Source: Conger conger (lineage: Eukaryota). Taken from it: DNA of 64,000 nt. The notes below the pieces were generated by a model. It did not search any database and was not told the origin of the DNA. It was given only the letters and a program-made list of their open reading frames with translations. The stretch lies in NCBI RefSeq assembly GCF_963514075.1, contig NC_083776.1, forward strand, positions 18,758,415 to 18,822,414. Reading direction: 5' to 3'. Numbering within the stretch: position 1 is the stretch's first letter; each line of letters opens with the position of its first letter. Positions 4,489 through 34,941 of the stretch are shown here, one piece after another. The translations under genes were made by a program, and so were the position numbers.

Positions 4489-6206
4489 TCACACGTAAGA
4501 CTCTTCAGCGAAAAGCATTTGGTCGAAGTCGTCGAACCTGGGGTCGCTGCACCTCCTGCTCTGCCACTCCCGCTTGGTCTGGACAATGGCCGAGGCCACC
4601 TCCTGTGTGCTTCTGCAGCAGGAATCGGGGTCTGTGTGGGTGTGCGAGAAGTAGTCCCTCACGGCCTGGCAGAACCTGGGCTCCGGGCCCAGCCCCTGGC
4701 TGCTGCGGAGAGGCTCCAGCGGCCCAGAGTCCTGGGGGCTCCTGCCCAGCGAGGCCTTGCCGTCCTGGCCCAGTACCTGCTTGTGCAGGCTCTCTAGGTC
4801 AGGGGTGGAGATCCGGCGCAAAACGCAGCGGCCTACCGAGGGTTCCGACGCCCGCCGGCCCATGCTGGAGGTCCTGTTTGAACCTTCCTTGGCTGGGATG
4901 AGGGAGTGGGAATTTTGCCTCTGGAGAGTCAAGCTGGAGGAGGCTTGTCCAAAGAACACTGACTGGGGCAGACCGCCTCTTACCGACGACGCGTTCTTCT
5001 GAGTGACGTCACTTCCTGCGCTCCTTGCCGACGCCTGGTCATGCAGCTGCCTCAGTTCCTTCACGGTCAGCACTTTATCTGTGGCCTTGCAGACGGGGGA
5101 CCTGGGGTCCTGCATTTGCAGCATGGCTTGTTGGTAGGAGGGAGGGCTGTTGGCCCTCTTCCTAGAAGGTTCTCCAAGTCCATGGGCTTTCCTGTCATTG
5201 CTCAGTGACAACCCATTGGAGGGGAGGGACTTGTTGTTCTGCCCATTGCCCAGCTCCCAAGGTTCTTCCTCATCCCAGCCAGTCATGTCCTGCTGCCGTA
5301 GCGACAGTCGCCGGTCCCTCTTCAGCCACGTGTTGGGGTGCAGGCCATGGGCGATCTTGTGTTGGCCCCACTCGCAGGGCTCCCTGGGGGCTGAACTAGG
5401 GGTGATGGCGTTGCCATGGGAGAGCGGAGAGGTGGTGACAGGGGAACGAGGGGAAGTTGGGGCAGGGGTTTTGGGGGAGGAGGTCCCCCGAGCACCCGAG
5501 GGCTCGACGGGGGCAGGGGCCGTGCAGTCCATGGAGCACTGGGAGAAGGCGCTGTCCAGCGAGCTCATGGATGAGCCTGAGGGGGACGTGGCGGGGGAGG
5601 ACAGGCTGGAGCAGCTGACGTCCAGACGCAGCGGCGAGGGGAGCTTGTGTTTCCGCCGCAGGACGTCCCGCAAAGTCCGCTTGTCCGGCTCGACCTCCCT
5701 GCCCCCGTCCCCTGGACCCGTTTGCCCGGCCCGGGTAAGTGAGTCACCCAGGCATTGCACAAAAACATCACCCTCGCCTTGTCCGCCGCACATCACACCG
5801 TCGTAGCTGGTTTTGCGGACCGCCATGTTGTGCTGCCCGAGGTTTGGCACCAGGCTGGAGGCGGGGTGCCGGATGGCGGGTTCAGAACATCGCCGGAGCC
5901 AGCGGCCCCCCTGGCAAGCCCGGGCGTCCTGCTCGGAAGGAGGGTCGGGCTGGTGCCCGGACTGGGTGAACTTCCTGGGGTTGACCGCCTGTCGGCGGAC
6001 GGGTGTATGGGGCACGGGGTCAGGGTCATGGTCGGGGTCGGGCTGGTCCAGGTCGCAGTCGCTCAGGGTGATGACGGAGTCACGGCTCCTGTTCTCCTGC
6101 TTGTCCTTGCAGCCCCGCAAGTCCTGGAAGGGCGACTCGGTGTCCTCGTTCAACTCGTTCTCCAGACTGTCATAGGACGAGTCGTTCAGCTGGACGGTGG
6201 ACACAT
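4489..6206 (-). CDS. arhgap20: arhgap20 terminal coding exon (exon n). It encodes about 572 aa of Ser/Pro-rich disordered C-terminal tail. The stop TGA is at 4489-4491.
   Basis: The exon is an uninterrupted 1.7-kb ORF. The acceptor ctacctgcag| lies at 6207-6209. The tail begins DVSTVQLNDSSYDSLENELNED...SVITLSDCDLDQP, which matches my recall of the ARHGAP20 (RA-RhoGAP) family tail. The protein ends ...RRCSDPRFDDFDQMLFAEESYV*. Phase is continuous with the upstream exon (G+AT gives Asp). Confidence 0.85.
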
Positions 6207-6224
6207 CTGCAGGTAGAGACACAA

Positions 6225-6410
6225 TGTCATTACATTATACTTATTTTAGATCACTTACAGTTGATTTGGCTTATCAGGGGACAATCCCGCCTGGAGCAAT
6301 GTTGGGTTAAGGGCCTCACTAAAGGGCCCACAAATCTTAGTGTGGTTACACTGGGGTTTGAATGACCAACCTTCCGGGTCCCAGTCAAGCAAATTAGCCA
6401 CCTGCACTCT
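6225..6410 (-). mobile_element. tRNA-derived SINE, family B, inserted in the arhgap20 intron.
   Basis: It contains ..cttatcaggggacaatcccgcctggagcaatgttgggttaagggcctcactaaagggcc..ggtttgaatgaccaaccttccgggtcccagtc.. and is homologous to 14565-14795. Confidence 0.65.
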
Positions 6411-6413
6411 CCT

Positions 6414-7012
6414 GTCAGTCTCATATATACTCAGTGACCACTTCATTAGGTATTTATTTGACTCATATCTTTGTCATATCTATTTGACTTATTGGTCTTC
6501 TGCTGCTGAAGCCCATCTACTTCAAGGTTCGATGTGTTGTGTTTTTGGAGATGCACTTCTGCATACTACTGTTGTAGAAGTAAATGAAAGAAATTACTGT
6601 TCATGCAGCTTCCAACGGTGTTGAAATCTCAACAGCTAATGGCTTTTGGCCAGTAACTTAGATCACATTTCTTCTCCATTCTAATATGATGTTTGATATG
6701 AACAACTGAGTCTATAGACCAGAGGTCATCAATTCACGGTCCTCAAGGTCCAAGAACTGCTGGTTTTCCACCATCCCTTTACCTGGGAGTCAGGTGTGAG
6801 GACAGTCTGGCCAATCAGTAACACCAATTGTTGAGCTAATCACTTGGGAGAAAAGAAAACCAGGGACGGATTTGGATTCGAGGTCCAGATTTGATGATGG
6901 CTGCTGTAGACCATGTCTGCATGCTTTTTTGCACTGAGTTGCTGCCACTTGGCTGATCAGAAATTTGCATTGAGGAGCTGGTGTGTACCTAATAAAGTGG
7001 TCACTGTGTGAA
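6414..7012. mobile_element. Non-autonomous TIR DNA transposon (MITE, family D) with a nested insertion of another repeat (R2, 6720-6905). It lies in the arhgap20 intron.
   Basis: The TIRs are tactcagtgaccacttcattaggtatttat... and ...tacctaataaagtggtcactgtgtga. The second copy at 52858-53155 has no insert, so its sequence is collinear with the regions flanking the insert here. Confidence 0.65.
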
Positions 7013-7796
7013 TGTGGCACATGTAGCCAATGGTCCATTCATCAGCATAAGGAGAGCTGGAATGGGAGCAGTGTGTTGAAATGGCCTCAAACACGACTGT
7101 AATTAAGCCCGTAATTACAGGGGGCAGAATTTGATAATGAGAGGTGATTGTCTGAACGAGCCACTGAATAGCAGTGTGTTGTGACACCACTCCACAGAGC
7201 TTTGGCTGTGCAGAGAGTACAACACCTCCTTTCTCCCTCCACTGTGGGCTCTTTAGCACCGGGAAATGGCCACCGGTCAAAAAATAAAAAACGCTGTTGT
7301 TTCAGCCACAAGCCATTGGCCCGCTCTCTCTCTCTCAGACACTCGACCCTGTAGACCTTTACACAGGACAGTGGCCAATGAGATCACCAGCAGGCCGTTC
7401 CTGTTTGGCTCTGTTTCATGATGGAGGCATTCCAATGGAAATGGACAAACTGACCAATTCACAGGATAATCACACCAATGAACTTGATATCCTCGGTACA
7501 AACACACAAACTAACAGACGTGGCTAACAGGCCTATTCACTGTGTAAGTGCACCAACATATTGTGTGTGTGTGTATGTGTGTGTGTACTTGCACGCACGT
7601 GCATGTCTGTAGGAGTGGGTTCCCAATCCCACAAGTCCTAAAAGGAATACCTATTATAATGAAAACAGGGAAAAGTGTTTGGTTGGCAGCACAAATAAAT
7701 AGCTAGTGATCTTTATAAAGCTAATGAACAATTATTTATACATCCAATCAAACAGTTATCCCTCAACTCATTTTAGTCAGAAGACATGATGTTTAC

Positions 7797-7905
7797 CAGA
7801 TATGTGGCTGCTGCCCTTATGTGGGAATCCACCAAACAAGGAAGTGACATCATCTCCCAGCACCTCACAGCAGTGTTCAATCATGAAGCGGACCACCTCG
7901 GACAC
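7797..7905 (-). CDS. arhgap20: arhgap20 exon m, post-GAP segment (VSEVVRFMIEHCCEVLGDDVTSLFGGFPHKGSSHIS).
   Basis: Acceptor tgtcctcag| and donor G|gtaaac. The exon is 109 bp (36 codons + 1). It aligns with the ARHGAP20/TAGAP motif V..LV.FLI.NC..IFGE.I. Phase is consistent with the flanking exons. Confidence 0.75.
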
Positions 7906-8320
7906 CTGAGGACAGAGCGGGGGTCATCAGAGCGTTTACAACAACAACAACCCAGTAGCTCCAGCAGGATTCCATTTTTTGGAACACAGAGAATATACAG
8001 TCCAAGCTTCTGTCTCATCTTAATTAAGATAAAAATATGCAGTAAAATAAAACACTGTTGGACATTCAGTCACACAATCATATAAATCTGCAAGGGGACC
8101 TGGAGCTGTCATTTCTCAACTGTCATTTTGTCTGAAGGCCAAAAAGAGACCACAGTTTGGCTGCTGTCATAGGCGTTTGAAAAGCTCTTTTTATTTTTAC
8201 CCTGCCAGCCAGACACTCATTGCGCTGTTTATCCTAAAAAAAGAATCTAAATTATATCTGTGGGTTGTGTGGGAAACAAATGGAAGAAGAGAAGAGCTCT
8301 TGTGTGATCTGAGGTCTCGG

Positions 8321-8445
8321 AGAGTCACCTACACTTCACCATACAGGCTGTGATTGGCTTTGAGAGTCCCATACACTTCACCACACAGGCTGTGATTGGC
8401 CCTTAGAGTCCCCTACACTTCACCACACAGGCTGTGATTGGTTCT
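8321..8445. repeat. Tandem repeat of 3 x 42 bp. Each unit carries GATTGG, an inverted CCAAT box.
   Basis: The unit is agagtc.c.tacacttcaccacacaggctgtgattgg...., repeated three times at more than 90% identity. It lies in the arhgap20 intron between exons l and m. Confidence 0.7.
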
Positions 8446-8754
8446 TTCCTGTGGAATGTCTACATCTCATGTTTTTATGTCTGCGCTGAGCTAATGGAAA
8501 GCCAGTACATACACAAACAAACAAACTAGGCTAGAAGACTAAAAACTCCAGTTTTCACAAAGAGAGCTGCCCTCAGGAATCTAAAGGAAAAGCTTTGGTT
8601 TTTCTCTGTTGGGGAAAAGCAAAACTCAATGCTCACATCTTTTCTGGTCAACTGAAAGTGTAACAATTTGTATTCTTTTACAGGAGTTAGGAAAACAGAT
8701 TTATGACAATCCACCATAACTTTACTATTGTGCAGATGGCCTGGTGAGCTATCA

Positions 8755-8990
8755 CAAACACACACAGACACACACACAAACACACCCACAAACACACACA
8801 GACACACACACAAACACACATGGACACATACACAAACACACACGGACACACACAGACACAAACACGCACATGAACACACTCACACGAACATGTACACTAA
8901 AACATGCATATGGACACACACAAGCATGCACAGGGCCACGCGCACACATACACACACAAATACTCAAGGACACACAATTGCAATACCAAT
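8755..8990. repeat. Compound CA-rich microsatellite, (CA)n/(CACG)n.
   Basis: cacacagacacacacacaaacacaccc... The His/Thr-rich and Cys/Val-rich six-frame ORFs here are artefacts of the repeat. Confidence 0.9.
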
Positions 8991-9358
8991 TAGCCAAGCC
9001 AGCACGGCTTTGGACTGTGGAAGGAAAACTAGGGCACTGTACACTGAATTAAACCTGAGAACCCCTTAGGTTACACAGCTAAGGTACCTCATTGTCAATC
9101 ATAGAATGATGACGTTTATTCTACATACAGCATATTCACACCTAGCCTGTCTGACTGACTACAGCTAAAGATTCAAGGTAATTCCAAGTTACCTTTCAAG
9201 AGTATAGCTGTGGTTTATACACTTTCATCCTAAGCAAAAAAACAGCAGAAACAGTCAGAGGGATTGAAAACGCTCATGAAAAATGGAGCATTGATTGGCT
9301 GGAATAATGAAAGGCAGTGGTATCAATGGCGATTGCAGCCTGGAGCCTGTGGCCTCAC

Positions 9359-9548
9359 CTTCTTGGTGCCTTCACTCTCCACGTCCGGGCTGCAGGGGGC
9401 GGGAGCCCAGAGCATGCTGGGAGCGATGCAGACGGAGAGGTTGAAGCTGTTCATCTGGTTGTCCTGAGCGTGGCGCTGGATGCAGTGCAGCACAGCCAGC
9501 ATGTGCCTCAGGAGCGACTGGTTCTCCCGCGGCAGGCTCTGCACCAAC
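9359..9548 (-). CDS. arhgap20: arhgap20 exon l, third RhoGAP-domain exon (...LVQSLPRENQSLLRHMLAVLHCIQRHAQDNQMNSFNLSVCIAPSMLW...PDVESEGTKK).
   Basis: The RhoGAP signature M..NLAVC..P.LL is present as MNSFNLSVCIAPSML. Acceptor cctcccag| and donor AAG|gtgagg. The exon is 190 bp and phase is consistent. Confidence 0.85.
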
Positions 9549-10066
9549 CTGGGAGGGGTCAGAGGTCAAGGGACAATCATTCTGTGACCTCCCCATTTAT
9601 TATTTTTAATTCTCCTTTACCTTTGGTACAAGTGTCCTCTCTTTTAGAGATGGGACGGTATGTACCCTGTTATTTTTTGCTTCTAGGAAATAGTTTGTGG
9701 GGCTAACACACTTCAATTGTTGCTCGTTCTGTATATTTTGTTTTTTTTTGGGGAGACTGACAAGAATTTATTTTCCTATTAGAACCTTTGCAACCTCTCT
9801 CTGTATCTCCCCTCATTCTCTCTCTCTCCTCTCCCCTTCCCCCCTCTCTCTTGGTGCGGTGCCTCGGTTTCAGGGGGCAGCAACTGAGCCTGTGAGAAAA
9901 GAACCCTGGAAATAAACAAGACTGTGGGTGGTTTGGGGTTTTAGAACTCCTGTGATCTGGATATTTTTTTCCATTGACCAAAGAAACACCTAACTGTAGC
10001 TGAGTCAGCTGGACTGTTATGATGTACTAAGCTAGCCTGGAAGCCAAAATGCATCTGTACTGGTAC

Positions 10067-10173
10067 CTCTGGACTGCCTGCACCTTGTCCTCCTCGCAGT
10101 CACCCGCCAGCCCCACCCACTGCTCATAGAGGTCCTGGGACAGCAGGCTGCCTGGGATGTGCCTCAGGAAGTC
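10067..10173 (-). CDS. arhgap20: arhgap20 exon k, second RhoGAP-domain exon (DFLRHIPGSLLSQDLYEQWVGLAGDCEEDKVQAVQR).
   Basis: The motif KDFLR.IPGSL.SSDLY..W is typical of the ARHGAP20/TAGAP GAP domain. Acceptor tctccgctcag| and donor CAGAG|gtacca. The exon is 107 bp. Confidence 0.85.
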
Positions 10174-10219
10174 CTGAGCGGAGACATGTTACTGTATGAA
10201 CAGGGCTGTATAAATAAGC

Positions 10220-10223
<4 letters not shown>

Positions 10224-10257
<34 letters not shown>

Positions 10258-10258
10258 T
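10224..10258. repeat. (TTGA)n microsatellite.
   Basis: gattgattgattgattgattgattgattgatt. Confidence 0.9.
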
Positions 10259-10294
10259 CCACCATACAGTTTATCATGCACTGTACTGCATCCA

Positions 10295-10395
10295 CGCAAT
10301 AGGCCATACAGGTCAAAGCAATGGAGTTCTAGAACACTGACTGACTAAATTAGAAAGAAACCATCCCAAAAAACCTCTTCAGAGGGTTTAATGAT
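10295..10395. repeat. Interspersed repeat family E (the ggagttctagaacac... palindrome-containing element).
   Basis: It is homologous to 26935-27100 and 37480-37680 (..cattggagttctagaacaccgac...ccaaaaaaccctactcttcaaagggtta..). Confidence 0.5.
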
Positions 10396-10790
10396 ACGAT
10401 GTGTGAGGAATAAGAGTTCACACTGACTAGTGTGGGGAAGGCAGGCTAGATAACTCACTGAATAGTCACTAAGCCCCATATGTCGCTATACTATATGTGA
10501 GCTTGTTTGCCACAACCTAAGCTGTGGAACTCTAATAAAGACATGTGTGGTTGATAAAAAGTCACAAATATACTTGGTTTGGCTTAAATCTGTTTTAAGA
10601 CACACAGGAGACTGCACATGTCATGCTGAACTCATGCTGGGAAGTCATCCTAAGATATGCATAATTGTACCAATAGCAATAGTTTTACTTGGATCATGGA
10701 ACACAAATGGAAAGCTCTAGGATGATATGAGAAGCTCTAAAACATGATAAATATGCGTGAGGGCTTTTAAACACCCAGCCCCCGTTCTAC

Positions 10791-10955
10791 CTTGAAGACG
10801 GCGGCGGTGACGAAGATGGTCTCGCAGGTGAGAGGGAGGGTTTCGGTCCCAGTGTTCAGCCGCTCCTTCATCTCACGGCAGGCCTTCGCACTCGCTGAGC
10901 GCCGGAATATTCCGCGGGTGAACGGGCCCTCCCGGAAGAGAAACGCCAACATATC
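10791..10955 (-). CDS. arhgap20: arhgap20 exon j, first RhoGAP-domain exon (DMLAFLFREGPFTRGIFRRSASAKACREMKERLNTG...IFVTAAVFK). It contains the catalytic arginine finger (GIFRRS).
   Basis: The GIFR(R/Q)SAN...C.ELKE.LN.G motif is present. The acceptor ctctctctgtag| follows a roughly 140-nt polypyrimidine tract. Donor AAG|gtagaa. The exon is 165 bp and in frame. Confidence 0.85.
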
Positions 10956-11125
10956 CTACAGAGAGAGAGGGGGGAAGGGGGGAGGGAGTGAGAGAGAGGG
11001 AAAGGGAGAGGGGGAGGGAGCGAGAGAGAGGGACAGAGAGAGAGAGGGGGGGGAAAGGGAGAGGGGGTGGGAGCGAGAGAGAGGGAAAAAGAGTGAGTGA
11101 CTGACTGACTGACTGACTGACTATG
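10955..11125. repeat. Polypurine/polypyrimidine tract of about 140 nt (GAGAGGGA-like) followed by (CTGA)7.
   Basis: gagagagaggggggaaggggggagggagtgagagagagggaaaggg...gactgactgactgactgactgact. On the minus strand this forms the polypyrimidine tract directly 5' of the arhgap20 exon j acceptor at 10955. Confidence 0.85.
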
Positions 11126-11488
11126 TCTAAATGAGTGACTGAGTGTGTGTGTGTATGTGTGTCCATGTACAAGCTGGCTGTGAGAGTGCCTTACAAAAAC
11201 AGACTCTAATGGCATTCCTTCAGAATTATAAGGACTTGTCTGAGGACTATTTTGAATGGAGATTCTCCATACAAGACTCAATTTAGTCCAGGACTTAACC
11301 TGTGTGTATGAAACCAGCTCATACAGTATTACAGTAGTTTTCTTGAATTATTTTAAAGTACAACAACCCTAGTCTGCTGTTTTTTCCATTGGTAACTGTG
11401 AGTGTTGCTCAGGCTTTCTGGCAGGGGTGTCCAGTCTGATCTGCACAGGGCCGGTATGGGTGCAGGCAGCTGGGGGCGGGGCACTCAC

Positions 11489-11667
11489 CATCACCGGTTT
11501 GGGGAGGGCGTCGCCCTGGCACACGGCGGTCAGCGGCAGGCCGAAGAGACGCCCCGAGGCGGGCGACGTGGGCGAGGGGGGCGGGCAGTCCAGCTGGGGG
11601 CTGGACCCGCGCCAGAAGGCCCAGTTTATAAGGGAGCGTTTCCTCCGCAGGGGCTTCTGCGCTGGCT
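11489..11667 (-). CDS. arhgap20: arhgap20 exon i (PAQKPLRRKRSLINWAFWRGSSPQLDCPPPSPTSPASGRLFGLPLTAVCQGDALPKPVM).
   Basis: It matches the ARHGAP20 segment ..KRRRSIINWAFWRGSS.HLD..PSSPTSP.PGQLFG..L......LPKPV almost residue for residue. Acceptor ccccctcag| and donor ATG|gtgagtg. The exon is 179 bp and phase is consistent. Confidence 0.85.
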
Positions 11668-12164
11668 CTGAGGGGGAGAGAGAGGGCTTTGACTGGGGGG
11701 GAACACGTCCGGACCCCCCCTGGGTCGCAGACGGGAGACAGACACACTGCTCTGTGTGAGAGTCTGGTCTGCAGAGCGGCGGTTTGTGCGCTAGGGGAGC
11801 AAGCCGGCCTGCTGGCTGTTTTTAGACGCTGTGTCTGTTTGTGTTCAGCTGGCTGGGGGAAGGGGGGGGGGGGTTTGTCCAAAAAGCACACGCCCAACAA
11901 CTCACGCATTCCACTGTGAAAGCACAAAACAAGCCGCGCCTGAAACGCATTCTATATTGTCCGTTCTATAATGTCGTTCTCGTGAAATGTTTAACTACAT
12001 TGTTCTCCCAAGTGTAATCCCTATTAATATTTAATATGTAGTGAGTCACAGGTTAAACAGCTTGGGGGACTGCTGATTTGGTGATTATATGCACATCGAA
12101 CCAGGTGCAGGGCTGGGCAATTATAACAGGGACCATACAGCACACTGGGACTCCATATCCACAC

Positions 12165-12260
12165 AGTGAAATGTTCAGTGTTAATTCAACTCTAACAGAG
12201 TACTTGTCATCCCTAATATACTTATATGTACTCTGTTAGGAGTTGAATTAACACACATTA
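12165..12260. repeat. Small foldback MITE (family F).
   Basis: It contains ..aattcaactctaacagagtacttgtcatccctaatatacttatatgtactctgttaggagttgaatt.. with inverted arms ctaacagagtac and gtactctgttag. The second copy is at 15528-15620. Confidence 0.55.
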
Positions 12261-12867
12261 GACATTTTAATATGCACCTTCATTAACCCATTATGGACTT
12301 AGGTGCCCTATAGAAAACCCACAGAAAGGCCTAGGAATCACAATGCATTCCAACGGTCATGTGTCTTGAAAGACGGTCATATGATCAAATACGACACTGC
12401 CGTCACATCCGTCTGTTAAGGGCGATGTAACACGCAGGTCACATCTGCCCGTAATGGGTTAAACAATGCTTTGATCGCGTGCGGGGTTGTCAGGTCTTCC
12501 TGTTGAAGATGCACAGGAGACTGAAACGCTGGTTAATAAAGTTGTGTATTGGGTTCCAGCGTGTGAGCTCTACTGAATTGTCCCTAACATTACAGGTACA
12601 GCCCATCAACACAGACAAGTTCAGGGGAAACTGAATGATAGATAGGTGAGTTCAGATAACAGTAAACAGCCAGGTGTCCTGTGACCTGTAACACTGATTA
12701 TTAAAAAGCCATGAAGTACAGAGAAATATGCAATGTATAATTATCTTTAAAAATGTAAAAAAAGACTGATCTAATTATGTGACTTATACTAGAAGGAATT
12801 TGAGTCGAGGCTTGTGGTTACATCTGCAATGCCCTGTGGTCCCTGAAAAATATGCAAAAAGATCTCA

Positions 12868-12945
12868 CTCTCTCCCTCTCTCTCTCGCTCTCTCTCTCTC
12901 CCTGTCACTCTCTCTCTCTCTCTCTCTTCCTCTCATCTTACCTTT
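12868..12945. repeat. (CT)n microsatellite.
   Basis: ctctctccctctctctctcgctctctctctctccctgtcactctctctctctctctctc. Confidence 0.9.
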
Positions 12946-13437
12946 TGTCACCCTTAATGTATTGTGGATTGTGAATCATTGAATTTAACTGAATAATGTG
13001 CCAATAAAGGTGTGTCAAAACTAAAATAATGAAACTCTTTGTCTTTCTCCCTCTCAATCTATCACCTCTCTTTTTCTGAATCCCTCTCTCCCTTATCCCT
13101 CTTTGCCCATCTCTTGTCTCTATCTCAAGAAGGTGCTTGCTAGCACTTTGAGATTGATGAGATAAGAAATACTTTATTAAACCCTGTGGTGTCATTTGTG
13201 ATTGTAATTTGTCCTCTGCATTGGACCCATCCTAGCTACTTAGGTGCAGTGGGCAGCCAGAGTGCAGCGCCCGGGGACAAACTCCAGCTCTGAGGCCAGC
13301 GCCATGGGCAAGGGCAACGGCAGGAGCACACCTAACCTGACACGCATGTTCACTCAATGAAAAGCGCATAATAAATGTGATATATTATTATTATTGTTTT
13401 TATCGTGATCTTGTGGGGGTGCAGTGCGGGGCCGTAC

Positions 13438-13611
13438 CCAGTATGGCCTGCTCCAGGGCCACGCGGCTGGGCTTCAGGATGAACTGGCACTGAGAGTCCA
13501 GAGGAGGCTGCTCCAGCAGGTCCCGAGGGCTGAGCGGCTCCTTGGCTCTCCCCGTCTGTGAGGCCTTCCCCCGGATGTGGCTCATTTTGATGCTGAAGGG
13601 GAACTCGTGCC
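13438..13611 (-). CDS. arhgap20: arhgap20 exon h (HEFPFSIKMSHIRGKASQTGRAKEPLSPRDLLEQPPLDSQCQFILKPSRVALEQAIL).
   Basis: It matches ARHGAP20 ..HEYPYGIKMSHLRD...MQCQFILKPSRLAAAQ. Acceptor cccctgaaag| and donor CTGG|gtacgg. The exon is 174 bp and its phase links the exons on either side (G+GG, G+AG). Confidence 0.8.
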
Positions 13612-13815
13612 CTTTCAGGGGTCAGAGGTCAAAGGTCAGTCATGTTTCAGTCACACTCGCCTTAAACAGCCCTTTGTTTTCAATGCAGCGTGCAGAGGTA
13701 GTGGTGCATTATGTTACGAGAGTCATTTCTATTCAAATAAAGATTTCAATTCACAAGAAGCTTAAGCTGCTAATAGGAAAAGGCTTATTTTTATTTCATG
13801 CTAAATGCTATTCAC

Positions 13816-13882
13816 CGATGAGAGGGTAGGGAGGGTCATCCTTTCGGGAGCTCACCCACAGCTGGTAGTCTTTCACACAGCC
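13816..13882 (-). CDS. arhgap20: arhgap20 exon g (GCVKDYQLWVSSRKDDPPYPLIG), the end of the RA-like region.
   Basis: It matches ARHGAP20 ..RDYQLWVNSGKEEAPYPLIG. Acceptor tgtcctgcacag| and donor ATCG|gtgaat. The exon is 67 bp. Confidence 0.8.
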
Positions 13883-13924
13883 CTGTGCAGGACAGACACA
13901 GACAGAAACATTAAACAGTGCCCC

Positions 13925-13931
13925 TGTGCAT

Positions 13932-13972
<41 letters not shown>

Positions 13973-14215
13973 TGTACACAAACACACATACACACACACA
14001 GACACACACACAACACACACGTACACACACATACATACATACACACACAACACACACGCACACACACATACATACATACACACACAACACACACGCACAC
14101 ACACATACATACACACAGACATACACATCCTTGCATGTGCACACACACAAATGTACAGGTGTGTGCGCACATATACACACATACTGTACACACACACGCA
14201 TGTTATATTGCCAAC
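13925..14215. repeat. Compound (CA)n / (CATA)n microsatellite in the arhgap20 intron.
   Basis: cacacacacacacacacacacacacacagacatgtacacaaacacacatacacacacacag... Confidence 0.9.
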
Positions 14216-14471
14216 TCAGCAAGGTGTGCTTGTTATGGTTGACTCAGTGACTGCTAGAAGCGTGAAGATTCCCACTCTGAATTCCCACTCCTTCTCAACT
14301 GGACAAGCAGCAAACACCTTCCAGACTATAGAGTAACACCAGTCCTGGCACCATTGTTCAGATGACTGTATTAGACCAGGCTTTCACAGAGTCTGCTGCT
14401 ACAGTTCAGTAATGAGGACCTGAACAGGGACTGGATCACGGTGTAAATAAGGCACACTGGGGTAAGCTTAC

Positions 14472-14549
14472 CACAACCCCAAACTGCCGCAGTGCAATGG
14501 CGATGACCTCTGTAGTGCAGTCTGATTGGCTGACCGTCAGGGTCTTGGC
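14472..14549 (-). CDS. arhgap20: arhgap20 exon f, Ras-association (RA) domain segment (AKTLTVSQSDCTTEVIAIALRQFGVV).
   Basis: It matches ARHGAP20 SKTITVMNSDTANEVINMSLPMLGI. Acceptor ttttcccccag| and donor GTG|gtaagc. The exon is 78 bp (26 codons). Confidence 0.75.
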
Positions 14550-14564
14550 CTGGGGGAAAACCAT

Positions 14565-14795
14565 ATTACATTACATTATTGGCATTTGGCAGACGCTCTT
14601 ATCCAGAGCGACATACAGTCGATTAGACTAAGCAGGAGACAATCCTCCCCTGGAGCAATGCAGGGTTAAGGGCCTTGCTCAAGGGCCCAACGGCTGTGCG
14701 GATCTTATTATGGCTACATTGGGATTCGAACCACCGACCTTGCGTGTCCCAGTCCTTTACCTTAACCACTATGCTACAGGCTGCCCGTTATGGCA
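14565..14795 (-). mobile_element. SINE family B, the most complete copy, inserted in the arhgap20 intron.
   Basis: It contains ggcagacgctcttatccagagcgacatacag...ggagcaatgcagggttaagggccttgctcaagggcccaac...gggattcgaaccaccgaccttgcgtgtcccagtcctttaccttaaccactatgctacaggctgccc. The tRNA-like head lies at the right end on the reverse strand. Confidence 0.75.
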
Positions 14796-14835
14796 AAAAA
14801 ACACTTAAATAATCTGTGTGGGAGTAACAGTGTTT

Positions 14836-15165
14836 GGTTATTATGGTATATACAGATGTACGTGCATGTTGTTATAGTCACTGACACTATTGTAGTGGGG
14901 TTGGAGCAGAGTTACCGTTGATGGATGACCACATAACGTTGGACACCTCTGAATTCCTACCTCAGGGTTTTAAATCTGTATAACAGTCACTTTCACGGAA
15001 AGCCCCTATTGTGTTTGGTTATCAAATGCAGATGTAAGAGCATGTTGCTATTGTGATTAACTCTACTCTAGTGAGTGTAGGTAGTTAAGATAGCATTGAT
15101 GGATTACAGCATAACGTTACACACCACTGCATTTAAACCTCAGCTCTCAAAGTAAAGTAGACGTA
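14836..15165. repeat. Local tandem duplication of a roughly 165-170-bp unit, 2 copies at about 75% identity.
   Basis: The first unit is ..ggttattatggtatatacagatgtacgtgcatgttgttatagtcactgacactattgtagtgg..gttaccgttgatggatgaccacataacgttggacacctctgaattcctacctcag.. and the second is ..ggttatcaaatgcagatgtaagagcatgttgctattgtgattaactctactctagtgag..cattgatggattacagcataacgttacacaccactgcatttaaacctcag.. Confidence 0.6.
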
Positions 15166-15527
15166 CTCATGTTCATAAGATTCTCATGTACGGTATGTTC
15201 AACCAGAGCGATGTTGCCATGATACCTGGCTTATACGGTCAATATTTATAATAAATGAGAATATTGGAATATATAACCGAAACATTTCATTCTGATCACC
15301 AGCTGTGGCTATCAAGTACACACACCCATCAACTAAAATAAGTTTTACAAGGGGTCCAGTCTAATCCAGATCAGGGTCCAGTCCACCAACTAGATGTATG
15401 CCTAGTCTGATATATAATTAAATATAGCTGAAATCATGTGAAATATTTACAAACTCACATACCTTATGTTATACCCAGGCATAAAACCTCCTTACCTACT
15501 CTTTTATTAGGAGCAAAGAAGTACTTT

Positions 15528-15620
15528 TCAACAGTGTTAAATCAAGTCTAACAGAGTACATACAGTATGGCTCCTTTTGAACTCATATGTACTCTGTTAG
15601 AGTCGAATGAACACTGGAAA
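15528..15620. repeat. Small foldback MITE (family F) copy.
   Basis: It contains ..caagtctaacagagtacatacagtatggctccttttgaactcatatgtactctgttagagtcgaatg. Confidence 0.55.
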
Positions 15621-16631
15621 TTTTAGTGCATGGGGGCATAAACATGGGCACACAAATTACACTTCATCAGTTCACAAGTCAGTTTTTAAAAATCTCCCTG
15701 AGGGTATATAAACGCATACCTGTGTCTGCTGAAAGCCCAGTGAGGCAGCTGGCTAGCTCATGTAAGAGAAAATCTGGGGCCTGTACAGCCTGTAGGGATT
15801 ATGAGCGCTTTACTTTGGGTTCACACACAGCTGGTGAAGAGAGTGATAGGGCGGTGCCTTTATTTAATTACATTGCAAAAGTACCTGTGTTTTACAAAAA
15901 TGACAAAATTACAAAAATCTCATAAATAAAAACAAAATCTATGTTCTGGAGATTTTTAAAAAGAGAATAATTCCATGTGGGGATTAACTTCTGAACTGAT
16001 ACTACTGATAGTGATACTACAACAGGGCTCTGCAGAGACTTTTTCAGGGGCAGGTGCTCCAAGTGAATCCCGAAAAACCAATGCAGTCTAGAAAAACTGT
16101 TTTACGAAAGCTAGTTATTGTACACAATATATTTAACCAAAATGAATGAACAAAAATTAATGTCTGCCACAATAATAATGCACTTAAAAAAAAAAATCAA
16201 ATCAAAGGGGCAAATCTAACACTTGAAGGCAAAAGGGGTAGGTACTGTACTGCATCCAGAGCGCCCCAACACCTCCCACCCCCCTATATGTGCCTGCTGT
16301 TCACACATTGACCTAGAATGTTCTCTATCACACAGGCATAAGGGTGTTGCTATGGGGGGCAGATTGCGTTTGGATGGTCCAGTCTGTCCTCCGATGACAA
16401 GGCCAAGGACAGTAGTGTGAAGGGACAGATTAAGCTACTGGGACATCCTGCCCTCGAACCAGGCCCTGGGATAATCACAGACAGGTCTGGATATTGCTTT
16501 GCTGCAGTGTGAGAGAGCTAGAACACACACCCGATACATACACATGACACGATACATACAGTACACGCATGTGCACACCTACACACTGAAATAGAAACAG
16601 AGACGCCGAAAAGAAGTTTAAAAATACCTAC

Positions 16632-16716
16632 ACATGCACAGTTCCCAACGTCCTTCGCGAATATTCTGAGAGCGATCGTTTTGGGTTCTTCTTTTTCTCG
16701 CTCTTCTTTTATTCGG
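16632..16716 (-). CDS. arhgap20: arhgap20 exon e, start of the RA domain (RIKEEREKEEPKTIALRIFAKDVGNCAC).
   Basis: It matches ARHGAP20 ..INLEKEKDYPKSIPLKIFAKDIGNCAY. Acceptor tgttttccag| and donor TGT|gtaggt. The exon is 85 bp. Confidence 0.8.
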
Positions 16717-17162
16717 CTGGAAAACAAACATTAAAAAATCAGTGCCAGGAAAATCAGAGAACAAACATGATGAAATATATAAGCAAAAAGATGTACAAAA
16801 TAAACAATACACAGTATATTTCATTTCTAGACACAACACCAATCTTAGAGTCTTGTGAGTTCAAAAAACTACTGTAAGAAATTATGGTTCTGATGGAAAA
16901 AAAACTAAAGCTTGTATTTGTGAGTTCCAATAATATAACATGCTGAATCAGTCCAGCGATTAGATATTGTACAGATGACACACACAACCACTATAACAAT
17001 TTACTTTCTGAGTAATGAATTGGGGCACATCATAAGCGTGATTCTAAAATGGGTCAAATAAGAATATAAGATTTGTTGATATTAATGACTCAGTTGAGAA
17101 CAAAGGGTCATGAGAGTAGGGTGATGCGGCCAGAGGCTGTATGAGATCACACAGAAATAAGA

Positions 17163-17215
17163 GAAATCGTGATGATGATGATGATGATGATGACGATGAA
17201 GATGATGATGATGAA
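17163..17215. repeat. (GAT)n microsatellite.
   Basis: gatgatgatgatgatgatgatgacgatgaagatgatgatgatg. Confidence 0.9.
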
Positions 17216-17311
17216 GCAGTGCAGAAGTGTGAAAGTACATCCTAAACACCTGAGTAGAAACCTTACTGAGAGTGCCTTTGAGCTGCTTATGTTATATTCG
17301 CAGTTGATTAC

Positions 17312-17353
17312 CTTTTTATGAAGGAGAGCCACCTCTCTTTCTGTTCCACCGAA
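17312..17353 (-). CDS. arhgap20: arhgap20 exon d, a 42-bp exon (SVEQKERWLSFIK).
   Basis: It matches ARHGAP20 SSPEQKDKWLSLLQRY. Acceptor ttctctcag| and donor AAAAG|gtaatc. Phase joins exon c (AG+T) to exon e (AG+C). Confidence 0.65.
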
Positions 17354-17583
17354 CTGAGAGAAGGAAAATATATATTTAGGAAAATAAACACTGGCAGTTT
17401 CTCTTGCCGGCTTACATAAGTTGTAAAAGAGTGATCCTTCGACTTAAATTATCGAGGAATGACAATCAGTCTTGAGTCTCAAAACTGCAGATACACAAGA
17501 CTGGAAAAGGCAAGACAAGGCACAGAACAGAAGTGATATTTTACCGTTGAATTATTTTATATCATGGACATCATAGTGAAGGT

Positions 17584-18153
17584 GTGCCCAGGTCTATTAT
17601 AGTACAGTTGGGCCCAAGTGTTATACAGTGCAGGTGTTCACAGGTCCTATACAGTACAGGTGTTCACAGGTGTTATACAGTGCAGGTGTTCACAGGTCCT
17701 ATACAGTGCTGGTGTACACAGGTGTTCTACAGTGCAGGTGTTCACAGGTGTTGTGCAGTGCAGGTGTTTCCAGGTGTTATACAGTGCAGATGTTTCCAGG
17801 TCCTATACAGTGCAGGTGTTCACAGGTGTTGTGCAGTGCAGGTGTTCACAGGTGTTATACAGTGCAGGTGTTTCCAGGTGTTATACAGTGCAGATGTTTC
17901 CAGGTCCTATACAGTGCAGGTGTTCACAGGTGCTGTGCTGTGCAGTGCAGGTGTTCACAGGTGTTATACTGTGCAGGTGTTCACAGGTGTTATACAGTGC
18001 AGGTGTTTCCAGGTGTTATACAGTGCAGGTGTTCACAGATGTTGTGCAGTGCAGGTGTTTCCAGGTGTTATACAGTGCAGGTGTTCACAGGTGTTATACA
18101 GTGCAGGTGTTCACAGGTGTTGTGCAGTGCAGGTGTTTGCACGGCCTACCTGA
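17584..18153. repeat. Minisatellite of about 22 copies of a 26-bp unit (caggtgttcacaggtgttatacagtg) with a 13-bp sub-period.
   Basis: Visible periodicity with variants such as caggtgtttccaggtcctatacagtg. It explains the six-frame ORFs at 17584..18153, 17618..18571 and 17628..18347. It abuts the arhgap20 exon c donor at 18150. Confidence 0.9.
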
Positions 18154-18299
18154 AGGTTGCCACGCAGTTGCAGGTGGGCCAGCCCATGACGAAGCTCCTC
18201 TCTGGGTGCATGCTGCCCTCACACACCTCCTCCACACAGCTGGCCGTCCACACCTCACACACACGCACCTGGGCCTTCAGCTTGAAGTGCGTGGAGGAC
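18150..18299 (-). CDS. arhgap20: arhgap20 exon c, second half of the PH domain (SSTHFKLKAQVRVCEVWTASCVEEVCEGSMHPERSFVMGWPTCNCVATF).
   Basis: It matches ARHGAP20 ..KIKLTDMWTASCVDEVGEG.TNAMKSFVLGWPTVNFVATF. Acceptor cacgttcag| and donor TTCAG|gtaggc. The exon is 150 bp. The donor lies 3 bp from the 17584-18153 minisatellite. Confidence 0.8.
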
Positions 18300-18749
18300 C
18301 TGAACGTGACAGGGGACCGTTACACACCCTCAGAGCACTCCAAGTAGAAAAACACTTGCCTTTTTTGGGGGGTTATAGGGGAGTTGAAATGTATAAGGAA
18401 ACCCCTGCACACTACTCTTTAATGCTCCTCTTTATTGAGCTACATATACACAATGGTTTGGACTTCATCAGCTCTCAATCTGTCACAATGTCACACCATG
18501 TGAAATTTAACCCAGTAACATCTCTTTTTTTCCCCATAGACACAAGTGGACGGAACAAACAGCATTACTGAGCCCAACATTCATAATAACAGGGATCGAC
18601 CAGTTGACCCCAGAACCTTGTGAACAATAAAAAAATCACTGCAAAAAAAGGCTGCCTTATAAAGTCTTATAAAGACTTAAAATCTTATTTCTTCAAGAGT
18701 GCATTCGCACATGTCTCTCTCTGTCTCTCGCTCTCTGTGACAGACGTAC

Positions 18750-18920
18750 TTGGCTTTGGCGATGAGGAGGATATCGTCAAAGAGGAAGAGGCAGCGCTCC
18801 TGCGTCTGCAGGCCAGTCTTCAGCTGGGCATGGCCGTGTGTGACGAACGTCCGAGACGGGGTCAGAAACGACTGGACCAGGGGACACGACTCCGGGCTGA
18901 CGGGCGACAGGCAGTTCTCC
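18750..18920 (-). CDS. arhgap20: arhgap20 exon b, first half of the PH domain (ENCLSPVSPESCPLVQSFLTPSRTFVTHGHAQLKTGLQTQERCLFLFDDILLIAKAK).
   Basis: It matches ARHGAP20 ..DSPSASVDTCTFLSSLVCSNRTLLIDGRAELKRGLQRQERHLFLFNDLFVVAKIK. Acceptor tttttcag| and donor CCAA|gtacgtc. The exon is 171 bp. Confidence 0.8.
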
Positions 18921-19074
18921 CTGAAAAACAAACACCCCTTAACATCACCAATCAGGGTCATCCTCAAAATCTGGATCTCTTACGCAACAGATGAGAGAAT
19001 GTACCTGGGGCTTACGCAGATTAAAACAGAGGACAGTATTACATTCTGAAAATAAAAGCCTTGCGTGTAGGTAC

Positions 19075-19128
19075 TGTTTTAATGCCATCACCTCTAAATC
19101 AAACGCAAGTCCTCCCTTAATGAGGGAA
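19075..19128 (-). CDS. arhgap20: Candidate upstream arhgap20 coding exon (..SSLIKGGLAFDLEVMALKQ). It contains an in-frame ATG at 19086-19088, which may be an alternative start.
   Basis: Donor CA|gtacct gives CA+G (Gln) in phase with exon b. Acceptor cctgattcag| at 19129-19131. It is only weakly similar to human ..SAPSLILDKALQK, and an in-frame stop lies just 5' of the acceptor. The ATG has Kozak context gtgATGG. Confidence 0.35.
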
Positions 19129-21477: not shown

Positions 21478-21830
21478 ATAAAACATATAAAATGTACAGT
21501 ACTGTGCAGAAGTCTAACGCACCCTAGACTTTATTATATATATGTTTTTTTGTGTGCTAGTATAAAAGAACACATTTGAGATTTCCAAATTTTCATTGTC
21601 CAAAAGATGTAATTTTACAGAGACATTTTTGTATTTAATAAAAGTAACATTTTACTGTAAGCAATTTACTACTTTTTACATAAAAACTTGATCAAGGCTG
21701 TCTGAGATCAGAAGCATGGAGCCAACCAAAGTCTGCAGAAGAACTGTGGCAAGTTCTCCAACATGCTTGGAACAACCTCCCTGCTGATTGTCTTGGCCAA
21801 CGCTGTCCCGCAGTTCTATATCTCAGAGAA
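21478..21830 (+). mobile_element. Degenerate Tc1-like transposon fragment with the TIR start TACAGTACTGTGCAGAAGTCT and part of the internal 3' region.
   Basis: It shares TIR and internal sequence (ggctgtctgagatcagaagc...caagttctccaacatgcttgg) with the copies at 25567-25935 and 54845-54975. Confidence 0.6.
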
Positions 21831-21844
21831 GTGATGCAGTTTTA

Positions 21845-22100
21845 ACACTGAATATTTATTTAAACTGCATTTATATCGTGCCTTTATCCAAGGTGCTTTA
21901 CAATGAATGTCTCTAATTCACCCATCCACACATACTCACATGCCATTAGCGAAAGGCTGCAATCAGCTTGTTGGGAGCAATTTTGGGTTAGGTGTCTTGT
22001 TCAGGGACACTTCGACACACCCAGGGTAGGGGAACAAACTGGCAACCCTGACTGCCAGCCGACTGCTCTTAACGCCTGAGCTAATGTCACCCCCTGTTGT
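21845..22100 (+). mobile_element. SINE family A copy.
   Basis: Its core ..gcaatcagcttgttgggagcaattttgggttaggtgtcttgttcagggacacttcgacacaccc..gcctgagctaatgtcaccccc is shared with the other family-A copies. Confidence 0.7.
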
Positions 22101-22695: not shown

Positions 22696-23689
22696 AGCAA
22701 GCTCAGCACCCAAAAGCAAGCCATCTGAACCTTTATCCTAAGGCCATAAACAGCCCTCTCATTTTAATATCAGAAATGTATTTTTTACCAGAAACAGTGC
22801 ACTTCAGTCAAAGAACAGAGGTCGTTCAATTTCAGAGGTTAATCCAACACAATCGCAAATTAATCTCTATTTATCAGGCTCCCCTAGCCAAAAGAGAAGA
22901 GAAGCAGTGGCAATAAAAATAATCCTTCAAGATTATGTAACATATTAACAGACTTTGACAGGAAATTAATGCTCACAGCGCAGTACTATGTGGGTTATAA
23001 AGGTCCAGGCTCCAGTTACTTTAGCAGGGATTTGGGGGGTAAAAAAGATTCCAGAGAGAGACGGAGAGACAGAGTCGATGCCAGCAGGCAGCCAGGGGCG
23101 AGACAGGTCAGCAGTAATCTGAAAAGCACTTTAACGAGGCAAACACAGTCCAGACCGTCAGGTTTCTCCCATTGTGTACAGACCGCTGTGATTGATGGCC
23201 CAGAGACTCTGTGAGTACTGTCAGTCATCGTAAATCAGAAAGGAGACACGTCTTCCGAGTTTGCCTTAGGACAGAACGCTGGATGATTTACGGGGCCAGA
23301 CTTCCATGTGAACCATGCAACCAAAACAGGGAACTACCTACTTATGTATACACAGCGCTTTGCGGACTTAAAGCACGACATTATCCAGGAGACTCTACAC
23401 ATCACTCAACTTCAGATTTGAGATGCGCTGTAAGTAATAACTTTGGCCTCGGAGACTTTTATGTTCAACAACAGACAAACTTCAGAAGTCTGTCGGAAGC
23501 TTTGTCTTGGCAGATGCCGGCGATAGCAATGCGTGTAACCCCCACTGTAATTCTGTAATCGTCTGGATTCCGTAAAACTGGACAAATGCAGGGGTTACTT
23601 CAGGCGGGAAAGGCCTTTCAGAAAAAAAAAAAAAAAACTTTTAAAAGTTCCGAACAGACTCGGAAGCACAAAGCCACAGACGCCAGTCC

Positions 23690-24110
23690 CAATGCGGCAT
23701 CAGGAAATAACACGGCAATTACGCCGGGCCACTCCGAGGTCTGCGGCCGGACGAAGGGGTCACCATCTCCGCGGAGAAACGTCCCTACGCTTGGGCCTGA
23801 CGTGGCCGAGGAGATGGCGTCTCCCCACCCCCTCGTTAGCCGCGCCGCTCCGTGTTTACCGGGAGAGCGGCTGTGCTCCGGGAGAGCGGCTGGGCTCTGG
23901 AAGAGCGGCTGGGCTCCGGGAGAGCGGCTGGGCTCCGGAAGACTGCGGCCCTGCGACAGTGACGCGAGGACAGCTGGGGCGCGGGCCCAGTTCCGACGGA
24001 CCGCTGGGGGATAAACCCAATGCGCCATCCCGCCAACGGAAAGCAGGTCCCGTCACACAGCGCATTGTCAGACTAAGGAAAGTCCTGGCAGGTAATTGTC
24101 TGGTTGTTTG
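23690..24110. promoter_or_regulatory. CpG-island-like segment, a candidate promoter or 5' exon. A strong plus-strand splice donor lies at 24092 (GGCAG|gtaatt).
   Basis: CpG dinucleotides are very dense (gccgggcc, ccgcggag, cgcgccgctccg, ggcgcgggcc) against an otherwise CpG-depleted background. An Arg/Gly/Pro-rich ORF at 23692..24129 ends exactly at the donor, so it is probably 5' UTR or a low-complexity exon. Confidence 0.35.
23868..23945. repeat. 19-bp tandem repeat x 4 (gggagagcggctgggctcc) inside a CpG-rich segment.
   Basis: ccgggagagcggctgtgctccgggagagcggctgggctctggaagagcggctgggctccgggagagcggctgggctccgg. Confidence 0.85.
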
Positions 24111-25566
24111 CGCACCTAAAGCCACTTAGGATTTCACTGACATGATTGAGCTTCGACGACCAGACCGTTTCTATCAGGTGACCTTTGCCCCCAAGGAGGG
24201 GGTGGGGTCACATGAGCATCCAAGTCAATCCCAGCAAAGAATGGGGTGATGAACTCTGAGCCGAAGGCCTTGTCTAATGACCCCTGACTCCTTTCAACTG
24301 ACAAGAGTCAGTAATGATAAGAGCACAAAGACCAGCTCCTTCTCTGCAGAAAGCTCACCAACATCACTGACGTCTAGCAATTAGCAGCTCCTGAACAAGA
24401 AAACACACCTCTTTATGTAGTCCTTAACTGAATTGTAAGTGCACAGAGTAAAATAATGTTTGTAAAAAACCCATTTTACATCAAAAAATTAATATGAAAG
24501 AATTTATACAGTGAAGTCCATAAGTCTTAGACAAAGACATATTTTTTCTTGATTGGGCTCTGTACTTCACAAATTGTTAATGAAACAATTAAAGAGTGGT
24601 TAAAGAGTTTCAGCTTTTATGTTTTATAAAGAGTATTTTATATATTTTGGCTTTACCATGTAGAAGTTCCAATGCTTTTTTTATAAATAGCCCTCCCCCA
24701 TTTCAGGGAGTCATAACACTTGGGACAAATGGCATTATGTGCCAGTGAAAGTCAAGGAAGCCATTATGAGGCTGAGAAGAAAACAGTCAGAGACATAGGC
24801 TAAACAATAGGCTAACCAAGTAAACTGTTTATAACATGGAGCTCACTGTATTACTTTCATATGGGTCCATGCTAAAACATGTCGGTTTCATACTGGTCCA
24901 TGCTGAAATATGCTGGCTTCCCGTTGGGCCATGCCAACGTAATGCTGCTTCTGATTGGTCCATGGTGAAACTGGCTGACGTGTCGCCGTGCTACACAGTA
25001 CCTGGATAGGGTCCTGGATTTGGTGAGTGCCTTGCTGATGACCAGGGAAGGGGCGGACTGCCGTCGCAGCGTTTTCATTTTCTGCGTGAGAGAAACAGAG
25101 ACAGAGAGAGAGAGCGTGATTTTCAATATGCACTATGTCCCCCACAAACAATGAGCACTTACATTATTTAAGGGGTGGAAACCCGCCAAATTCTCAGAAA
25201 ACAATTTTAAGGATATTTTATAGGCTCAGATTTTCATTGTGCTTGGTTAATTGTCTTTAAAAAATGAATAAAGACACGCACCACTGTCTCTTGCAAGCAT
25301 ATGCTTGCAACATTCCCAGACGTAAGTAAACAACATAGTATAATACACTGGCATTGCACGCTGAAAGAATGGGAACTCTGTGCTGGAAAGAGTACGTGTT
25401 TGTCATTTATCATATTTCCCCAAGCATTCTAACCTCTACAACAATACCCAGAATTTGCATTAGCAAAAGGAATTTCTTTCATTGTAGGAACAGGCCCAAA
25501 AAGTCTGTGTCTTTCAAAGGGAGAACTGGTCAGAGAGTATTGCCGTTCTTATGCTATTGTGTGTAC

Positions 25567-34789: not shown

Positions 34790-34835
34790 TACAGTATGTG
34801 TGTGTGTGTGTGTGTGATAGAGAGCATGTGTGTAC

Positions 34836-34872
<37 letters not shown>

Positions 34873-34890
34873 TAGAGAGCATGTGTGTAC

Positions 34891-34922
<32 letters not shown>

Positions 34923-34941
34923 ATAGAGAGCATGTGTGTAC

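Follow-up and report, generated by a model that had tools for sequence, protein, structure and literature searches.

An ARHGAP20 co-orthologue in the genome of Conger conger, with a predicted coding region of 15 exons

Introduction

Which gene lies on the minus strand of this stretch of the Conger conger genome (all 64,000 nucleotides analysed, hereafter the window), and where does its coding region begin? A preliminary description, reconstructed by hand from the raw sequence, had given a complete arhgap20 (RA-RhoGAP) coding region of 14 exons between 4489 and 19128, as the only host gene of a repeat-rich window. In this work, the locus is almost certainly recognised as the gene that NCBI names 'rho GTPase-activating protein 20-like', with 15 coding exons running on the minus strand from 29270 to 4489, two of which were missed by the hand-made model.

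Results

The protein encoded at the locus carries three Pfam domains in the order PH, RA and RhoGAP: an ARHGAP20-type PH domain (PF22286, RHG20_PH; residues 85-177, E=2.1e-40, 137 bits, full profile 1-93), an RA domain between it and the GAP domain (PF00788; residues 196-272, E=1.9e-12, 48 bits) and a RhoGAP domain (PF00620; residues 371-515, E=4.5e-36). Beyond them comes a long tail of low complexity whose last residues, ESYV, also close 119 of the 120 listed homologues, so that the domain order and long tail first described by hand are confirmed. The top match among those listed is P0001, 'rho GTPase-activating protein 20-like [Conger conger]' (2469 bits, 99% identity, 100% coverage), a similarity well outside anything due to chance; PF22286 is present in all 120 listed matches, and all the descriptively named ones are ARHGAP20 or ARHGAP20-like. 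The best solved structure is the GAP domain of human ARHGAP20 (3msx_B, 250 bits), the next RhoGAP being ARHGAP1 with 92 bits. The arginine finger (GIFRRS) aligns with GIFRRS of p50RhoGAP and GIFRQS of human ARHGAP20, the lysine of FKDFLR is aligned too, and the equivalent of p50RhoGAP Asn194 is a serine (APSML), the same change being seen in human ARHGAP20 in the structure alignment. Judged by sequence, the window gene is a co-orthologue of vertebrate ARHGAP20, and the identity proposed by hand is upheld. The six peptides that had been quoted as diagnostic of the family are all in the protein, five of them intact on the minus strand (16632-16676, 11600-11647, 10848-10913, 9410-9454 and 6142-6192) and the sixth across the splice junction 13816/13611, contiguous once spliced.

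The 15-exon model has 14 GT-AG introns and a frame open over 1137 codons (1137 aa). Coding exon 1 (29172-29270, all exons being on the minus strand) opens with the ATG at 29270-29268, encodes METMSPKQENSGQSRSASLTGEAKICSLPENKK and ends at the donor AAG/gtacgc; coding exon 2 (25002-25081), between the acceptor cacgcag/ and the donor CAG/gtactg, encodes KMKTLRRQSAPSLVISKALTKSRTLS plus the AG of a split Arg codon, which is completed by the first base, G, of exon 3. The PH domain starts in exon 3 (18750-18920; ENCLSPV...LLIAKAK), which was the second exon of the hand-made model, continues in exon 4 (18150-18299; SSTHFKLKAQVRVCEVW...CVATF) and ends in exon 5 (17312-17353; SVEQKERWLSFIK). The RA domain starts in exon 6 (16632-16716; RIKEEREKEEPKTIALRIFAKDVGNCAC) and extends over exon 7 (14472-14549; AKTLTVSQSDCTTEVIAIALRQFGVV) and exon 8 (13816-13882; GCVKDYQLWVSSRKDDPPYPLI(G)), to be followed by exon 9 (13438-13611; HEFPFSIKMSH...SRVALEQAIL). 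Exon 10 (11489-11667) holds the linker RRKRSLINWAFWRGSS and then the start of the RhoGAP domain, which runs through exon 11 (10791-10955), where the arginine finger (GIFRRSAS) was aligned to p50RhoGAP and human ARHGAP20, exon 12 (10067-10173; DFLRHIPGSLLSQDLYEQW...) and exon 13 (9359-9548; ...NQMNSFNLSVCIAPSMLW...GTKK), and ends in exon 14 (7797-7905; VSEVVRFMIEHCCEVLG...). Exon 15 (4489-6206) encodes the tail in 572 codons, beginning with DVSTVQLNDSSYDSLENELNED and finishing in ...AEESYV at the C-terminus, and closes with the stop TGA at 4491-4489, which makes the left boundary of the preliminary description exact. Candidate polyadenylation signals (AATAAA) were seen at 3987, 3889, 3380 and 2845. 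From 18920 to 4489, the AG acceptors, GT donors and unbroken phase that had been claimed for all 14 exons of that model do hold for 13 of them (i.e., exons 3-15 of the present one).

The 5′ end is where the two models part. The first 60 residues of the protein (METMSP...KMKTLRRQSAPSLVISKALTKSRTLSR) are encoded by 29270-29172 and 25081-25002, 6 to 10 kb upstream of the hand-made model; neither the completeness nor the exon count claimed for the latter therefore stands. A tblastn search with the 60-residue N-terminus of P0001 finds it in the window at 29270-29172 (residues 1-33, 100% identity) and at 25084-25001 (residues 33-60, 96% identity), both exons have canonical splice sites, and their phases fit exon 3 at 18920. 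The motif R[RK]QSAPS lies close to the N-terminus in 109 of the 120 listed homologues, including the proteins of gar, bowfin and sturgeon, and the conserved segment with ME[TSA]MSP... and R[RK]QSAPS, which precedes the PH domain, appears in the protein only with these two exons and is lacking from the hand-made model. The stretch 18921-19128 (minus strand), where exon 1 had been placed, is sequence of intron 2 with no homology to any ARHGAP20: P0001 has no tblastn match there, no homologue matches it, and there is no ATG at the proposed right boundary, 19128. That exon is spurious. The in-phase options for a first exon upstream of 18920 are short open reading frames (e.g., the five-codon MALKQ at 19088-19075), MALKQ being the one candidate left within 4489-19128. 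A 47-codon first exon at 19088-18949 was also considered and rejected, since the remaining intron would be of 28 nt only.

It could be argued that the 14-exon model describes a genuine alternative isoform, transcribed from a promoter inside intron 2 and starting either with MALKQ spliced to 18920 or with the in-frame read-through MTLIGDVKGCLFFR just upstream of 18920. A GT donor (ACA/gtacct) and the AG acceptor at 18921 do preserve the phase, no stop codon breaks the frame from 18979 on into exon 3, and N-terminally shorter isoforms exist among the homologues, e.g., P0012, which starts with MKMKTL. However, P0012 retains exon 2 sequence, which the 14-exon model does not, a start with MALK or similar is absent from all 120 listed homologues, and thirteen ATG...GT combinations that keep the phase occur within 480 nt, which is the number expected by chance. 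With the missing ATG at 19128 added to these, such an isoform seems very improbable; MALKQ is a chance open reading frame, and the protein is predicted to start at 29270.

Two further readings concern the gene as a whole, and both appear vanishingly unlikely. That it might be TAGAP or another RhoGAP paralogue is suggested by the GAP domain common to both and by a similar C-terminal motif; a comparison with TAGAP, to be taken as a lead only, shows the GAP domains to be 39% identical and the C-termini to align weakly. However, TAGAP shows no alignment to the model before residue 322, and the window protein has PH and RA domains upstream of its GAP domain, which TAGAP is not known to have. No match among the 120 listed is named as another RhoGAP, all of them carrying the ARHGAP20-type PH domain, and human ARHGAP20 shares 52.5% identity with the model across residues 1-587 and scores 635 bits, where TAGAP reaches 180 bits; the best match is thus neither TAGAP nor another RhoGAP. 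The locus could, on the other hand, be seen as a decaying duplicate (i.e., a pseudogene) of the other ARHGAP20 copy of elopomorph fishes, which do have two, and NCBI labels the window copy '-like'. Against such decay, all 1137 codons are open, all 14 introns canonical, and the arginine finger and three domains intact, whilst in a bootstrapped neighbour-joining tree (Kimura distance) the branches of the window copy are the shorter ones, with representatives from Conger, Anguilla, Gymnothorax, Synaphobranchus, Aldrovandia, Albula and Megalops. An intact ARHGAP20 co-orthologue is what the evidence points to.

The 15-exon model and P0001 (1131 aa) are identical at all 1131 shared residues, their sole difference being six extra residues, VGNCAC, in the former. 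In the NCBI model, exon 6 is cut short at a donor inside it, after 16650 (GAT/gtggga) and 18 nt upstream, and so these residues are omitted. The motif xGNCAxx is kept in 92 of the 93 homologues having the FAKD motif, and the RA domain scores 48.1 bits with VGNCAC versus 39.7 bits without it, the match to the domain being more complete when the six residues are kept. An exon 6 ending in ...VGNCAC thus agrees more closely with the homologues than the version of NCBI. Less probably, the choice between donors 18 nt apart might be a genuine, regulated switch that would remove the first strand of the RA domain, the part expected to bind Rap. The exon-6 donor, like the intron positions, transcription start and untranslated exons, should be read as predicted from homology and splice consensus.

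Outside the gene, the window contains microsatellites, minisatellites, SINE and LINE fragments and one Tc1-like transposon. Repeats are abundant, as first described, and the claim that arhgap20 is the only host gene is not contradicted by a limited check, in which filtered six-frame open reading frames were viewed by eye and the ten longest non-gene ones searched against Pfam: these ten gave no match other than Tc1 transposase, a check that short vertebrate exons could escape. ARAGORN found no tRNAs or tRNA-like SINE heads. A match to the eel LINE UnaL2 (Rfam) lies in intron 6, which fits an anguilliform genome. In vertebrates, ARHGAP20 has FDX1 and RDX on one side and a gene-poor 5′ side; FDX1 had no tblastn match in the window, just 4.5 kb of which lies 3′ of the gene, too short a flank for this absence to tell for or against such a neighbourhood.

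Discussion

These results carry little biological weight, since the public Conger conger genome already has an annotation for this gene and its family has been described well. Their value is methodological: a reconstruction by hand from raw sequence got the right gene and 13 of the 15 coding exons exactly, and at one exon, where VGNCAC was kept, it came closer to the family than the automated NCBI model. Its failure at the 5′ end illustrates that exons which are short and far away easily escape the eye, and that a chance ATG...GT can mimic a first exon.

As to function, ARHGAP20 is presented as a RhoA-specific GAP downstream of Rap1 in a passage of PMC13419509 (citing Yamada et al. 2005, J Biol Chem 280:33026). 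Rap1 binding and RhoA GAP activity, which are known for the mammalian protein only, may by analogy extend to the fish protein. If so, GTP-bound Rap1 would bind the RA domain and thereby activate or position the GAP domain, whose arginine finger (GIFRRS) would speed up GTP hydrolysis on RhoA, the PH domain probably aiding in membrane targeting; local Rho activity would then fall during neurite outgrowth, cell adhesion or migration.

The two elopomorph copies are sister clades in the neighbour-joining tree, with 100% bootstrap, and therefore neither of them is 'the' arhgap20; both are co-orthologues. The second copy (P0012 of Anguilla anguilla, named 'rho GTPase-activating protein 20', and P0007 of Megalops) resembles the window gene in its domain set and its N- and C-terminal motifs, and yet is only 58-64% identical to it. 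It is tempting to speculate, though this is a tentative reading with the balance against it, that the pair are duplicates from the teleost whole-genome duplication, kept only by eels, tarpons and their relatives. Their grouping as sisters, without separate 'a' and 'b' clades, could mean that the region was rediploidised only after elopomorphs had split from the other teleosts, and if this were true, arhgap20 would be one more marker of delayed rediploidisation.

Compared to the systems already known, the window gene stands closest to the NCBI Conger model, with which it shares start and stop and from which it differs in VGNCAC. The similarity to TAGAP is much lower: the RhoGAP domain and the C-terminal motif are related, and TAGAP is not known to have a PH or RA domain. 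Mammalian ARHGAP20 has the same order of PH, RA and RhoGAP domains and a long tail, which is poorly conserved and in the fish proteins ends in ESYV. The motifs RRxSAPSL, RRKRSxINWAFWRGSS and QLNDSSYDSLENELNED are common to the window protein and full-length human ARHGAP20, and the two GAP domains align end to end (PDB 3MSX).

Results

The gene in the window is genuine and intact, a co-orthologue of arhgap20 that has already been annotated. The preliminary description, which had called a complete 14-exon coding region on the minus strand at 4489-19128, was right about the gene and about 13 exons (splice sites, phases, Pfam and database matches all agree). Five of the six peptides it gave as diagnostic lie intact in minus-strand frames (16632-16676, 11600-11647, 10848-10913, 9410-9454 and 6142-6192), and the sixth, DYQLWVSS...SIKMSH, is divided between 13870-13816 and a part running from 13611 on, becoming contiguous once spliced. 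With exon limits set by reading the flanks of each conserved open segment, 13 exons fall within 18920-4489 (minus strand), each with an AG acceptor, a GT donor and compatible phases, and the joined sequence stays open as far as the TGA at 4491-4489, which matches the proposed left boundary exactly.

The 5′ end is where that model fails. Its right boundary, 19128, has no ATG, and tblastn of P0001 (the 1131 aa NCBI protein ‘rho GTPase-activating protein 20-like [Conger conger]’) finds no match anywhere in 18921-19128. In P0001, 60 residues precede ENCLSP, and this protein-to-genome alignment, the kind of check suggested for exon placement, puts residues 1-33 at 29270-29172 (100% identity) and residues 33-60 at 25084-25001, outside the interval said to be complete. 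Coding exon 1 (minus strand) starts with the ATG at 29270 and ends at the donor AAG/gtacgc; coding exon 2 (minus strand, 25081-25002) has the acceptor cacgcag/AAAATG and, after 25002, the donor CAG/gtactg, its terminal AG forming with the G at 18920 the Arg codon of TLSR/ENCLSP. The resulting 15-exon coding region, 29270-4489, is 3414 nt long and encodes 1137 aa, identical to P0001 at all 1131 of the latter's residues. The N-terminal segment missing from the 14-exon model is a feature of the family: R[RK]QSAPS occurs within the first 150 residues of 109 of the 120 listed homologues, gar, bowfin and sturgeon proteins among them; 61 of the 120 begin with ME[TSA]MSP and none with MALK. The most plausible candidate for the first exon of the 14-exon model is MALKQ, at 19088-19075. 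The 480 nt upstream of 18920 hold 13 phase-keeping ATG...GT combinations, all but one short, so that the claim of GT/AG and continuous phase at every junction can hold literally and the first exon still be a chance construct. An option with a 47-codon first exon was rejected, the intron it leaves being just 28 nt.

In coding exon 6 (minus strand), two donors that both keep the frame lie 18 nt apart, at 16632-16650. The NCBI Conger model takes the upstream, internal one (GAT/gtggga), so VGNCAC is lost, whereas the 14-exon model and the present one use TGT/gtaggt, 18 nt downstream. Both homologue counts and RA scores favour the latter: xGNCAxx is kept in 92 of the 93 listed homologues having the FAKD motif, P0001 being the sole exception, and Pfam gives the RA domain 48.1 bits (profile positions 4-80) with VGNCAC, which maps to its first strand region, and 39.7 bits (positions 18-80) without it. 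Either the NCBI annotation slipped here or the exon has an alternative 5′ splice site.

The 13-exon product (1077 aa) carries, in the order previously described, the ARHGAP20-type PH domain PF22286 (6.7e-40), RA (4.7e-12) and RhoGAP (1.1e-35). A search of 5.8 billion proteins (E < 1e-20) gave 852 matches, of which the 120 listed all have PF22286; their descriptive names are rho GTPase-activating protein 20 or 20-like only, the rest being ‘hypothetical’, ‘unnamed’ or nameless. The related RhoGAP TAGAP had been named as an alternative identity, but the top database match is P0001 (99% identity, 100% query coverage) and the best solved structure by far is 3msx_B, the human ARHGAP20 GAP domain (250 bits over 200 residues), followed by ARHGAP1/p50RhoGAP (92 bits). 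Two further queries are to be taken as leads only: a human ARHGAP20 N-terminal sequence aligned over residues 1-587 with 52.5% identity and 635 bits, and TAGAP gave 39% and 180 bits in the GAP domain and otherwise a weak C-terminal match. Of the 120 listed homologues, 119, this protein among them, end in ESYV (4492-4503 in the window), the other having ESFV; a conserved RRCSDPRFDDF motif precedes this end in ARHGAP20 homologues, and the tail resembles a class I PDZ-binding one.

The picture of a repeat-rich window with no other recognisable host gene is not contradicted by a coarse test (ten longest non-gene ORFs, TRF, self-comparison). Pfam found no domains in those ORFs apart from one Tc1/Sleeping-Beauty-type transposase, uninterrupted and complete (60916-61986, plus strand, ~340 aa; HTH_SB 9e-26, HTH_Tnp_Tc3_2 1.5e-21, DDE_3 5e-16). 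Inverted repeats of ~200 bp, 86-100% complementary, flank it at 60601-60800 and 62005-62209, delimiting an element of about 60601-62209. Its left end reads TA followed by CAGTGGGAGC and its right end GA followed by AGTGGGAGC, so one terminus seems damaged.

TRF reports numerous (CA)n-type arrays and minisatellites, including 17618-18137 in intron 4 (26 bp x 20, 84% matches), 34797-36146 (49 bp x 28, TG-rich unit, strong GC skew) and 36636-37037 (28 bp x 14, very regular, 97% matches). Self-comparison reveals short interspersed repeats of 80-220 bp in no fewer than 14 copies, at 1168-1245, 6253-6386, 21658-22081, 25746-25848, 30588-30764, 31417-31533, 38669-38888, 43403-43514, 47270-47459, 52526-52614, 54745-54938 and 56076-56255; translated, they give recurrent pseudo-peptides (e.g., ...AAMQGTNQLVRSIWGLG...TSTQ...), and ARAGORN found no tRNA-like heads. 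Intron 6 holds a full-length (1-54) UnaL2 LINE 3′ element at 14576-14629, minus strand (Rfam gathering-score match, 60.5 bits), and the sequence around it, 14584-14754, recurs in other parts of the window; UnaL2 is the eel LINE whose 3′ tail is common to eel SINEs. The top match, P0001, places the origin of the window in the European conger or something indistinguishable from it, and the UnaL2 element is consistent with this. In intron 2, about 1 kb past coding exon 2 in the direction of the gene, 23559-24126 is GC-rich and contains a 19-bp tandem repeat (23859-23942); each strand has long open frames there, but Pfam gave no match.

Discussion

Elopomorph fishes have two ARHGAP20 copies, P0002 (‘20-like’) and P0012 (‘20’) in Anguilla, 79% and 58% identical to the window gene, and P0006 and P0007 (copies 1 and 2) in Megalops. 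In a neighbour-joining tree (31 proteins, 1074 columns, Kimura distances, 200 bootstraps, rooted on sturgeons and paddlefish) the window copy groups with Anguilla ‘20-like’, Gymnothorax, Synaphobranchus, Aldrovandia, Albula and Megalops-1 (100% bootstrap). The sister of this clade is Anguilla ‘20’ plus Megalops-2, all elopomorph sequences stand together (100%), and neither copy pairs with one from other teleosts. As sisters, the two copies are both co-orthologues of ARHGAP20, so that calling one of them ‘-like’ is arbitrary. The pattern matches that of many eel paralogue pairs, for which the explanation given is delayed rediploidisation following the teleost duplication (PMC6561569, PMC9528989); it fits a lineage-specific duplication equally well.

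As to function, PMC13419509 describes ARHGAP20 as a RhoA-specific GAP acting downstream of Rap1 (citing Yamada et al. 2005), with phosphoinositide association proposed for its PH domain. Since the conger protein retains every ARHGAP20 module and the catalytic arginine, our best guess is that it would likewise link Rap1 to RhoA. In the structure-match comparison its arginine finger (GIFRRS) aligns, as does the FKDFLR lysine. At the position of Asn194 of p50RhoGAP it has Ser, just as human ARHGAP20 does.
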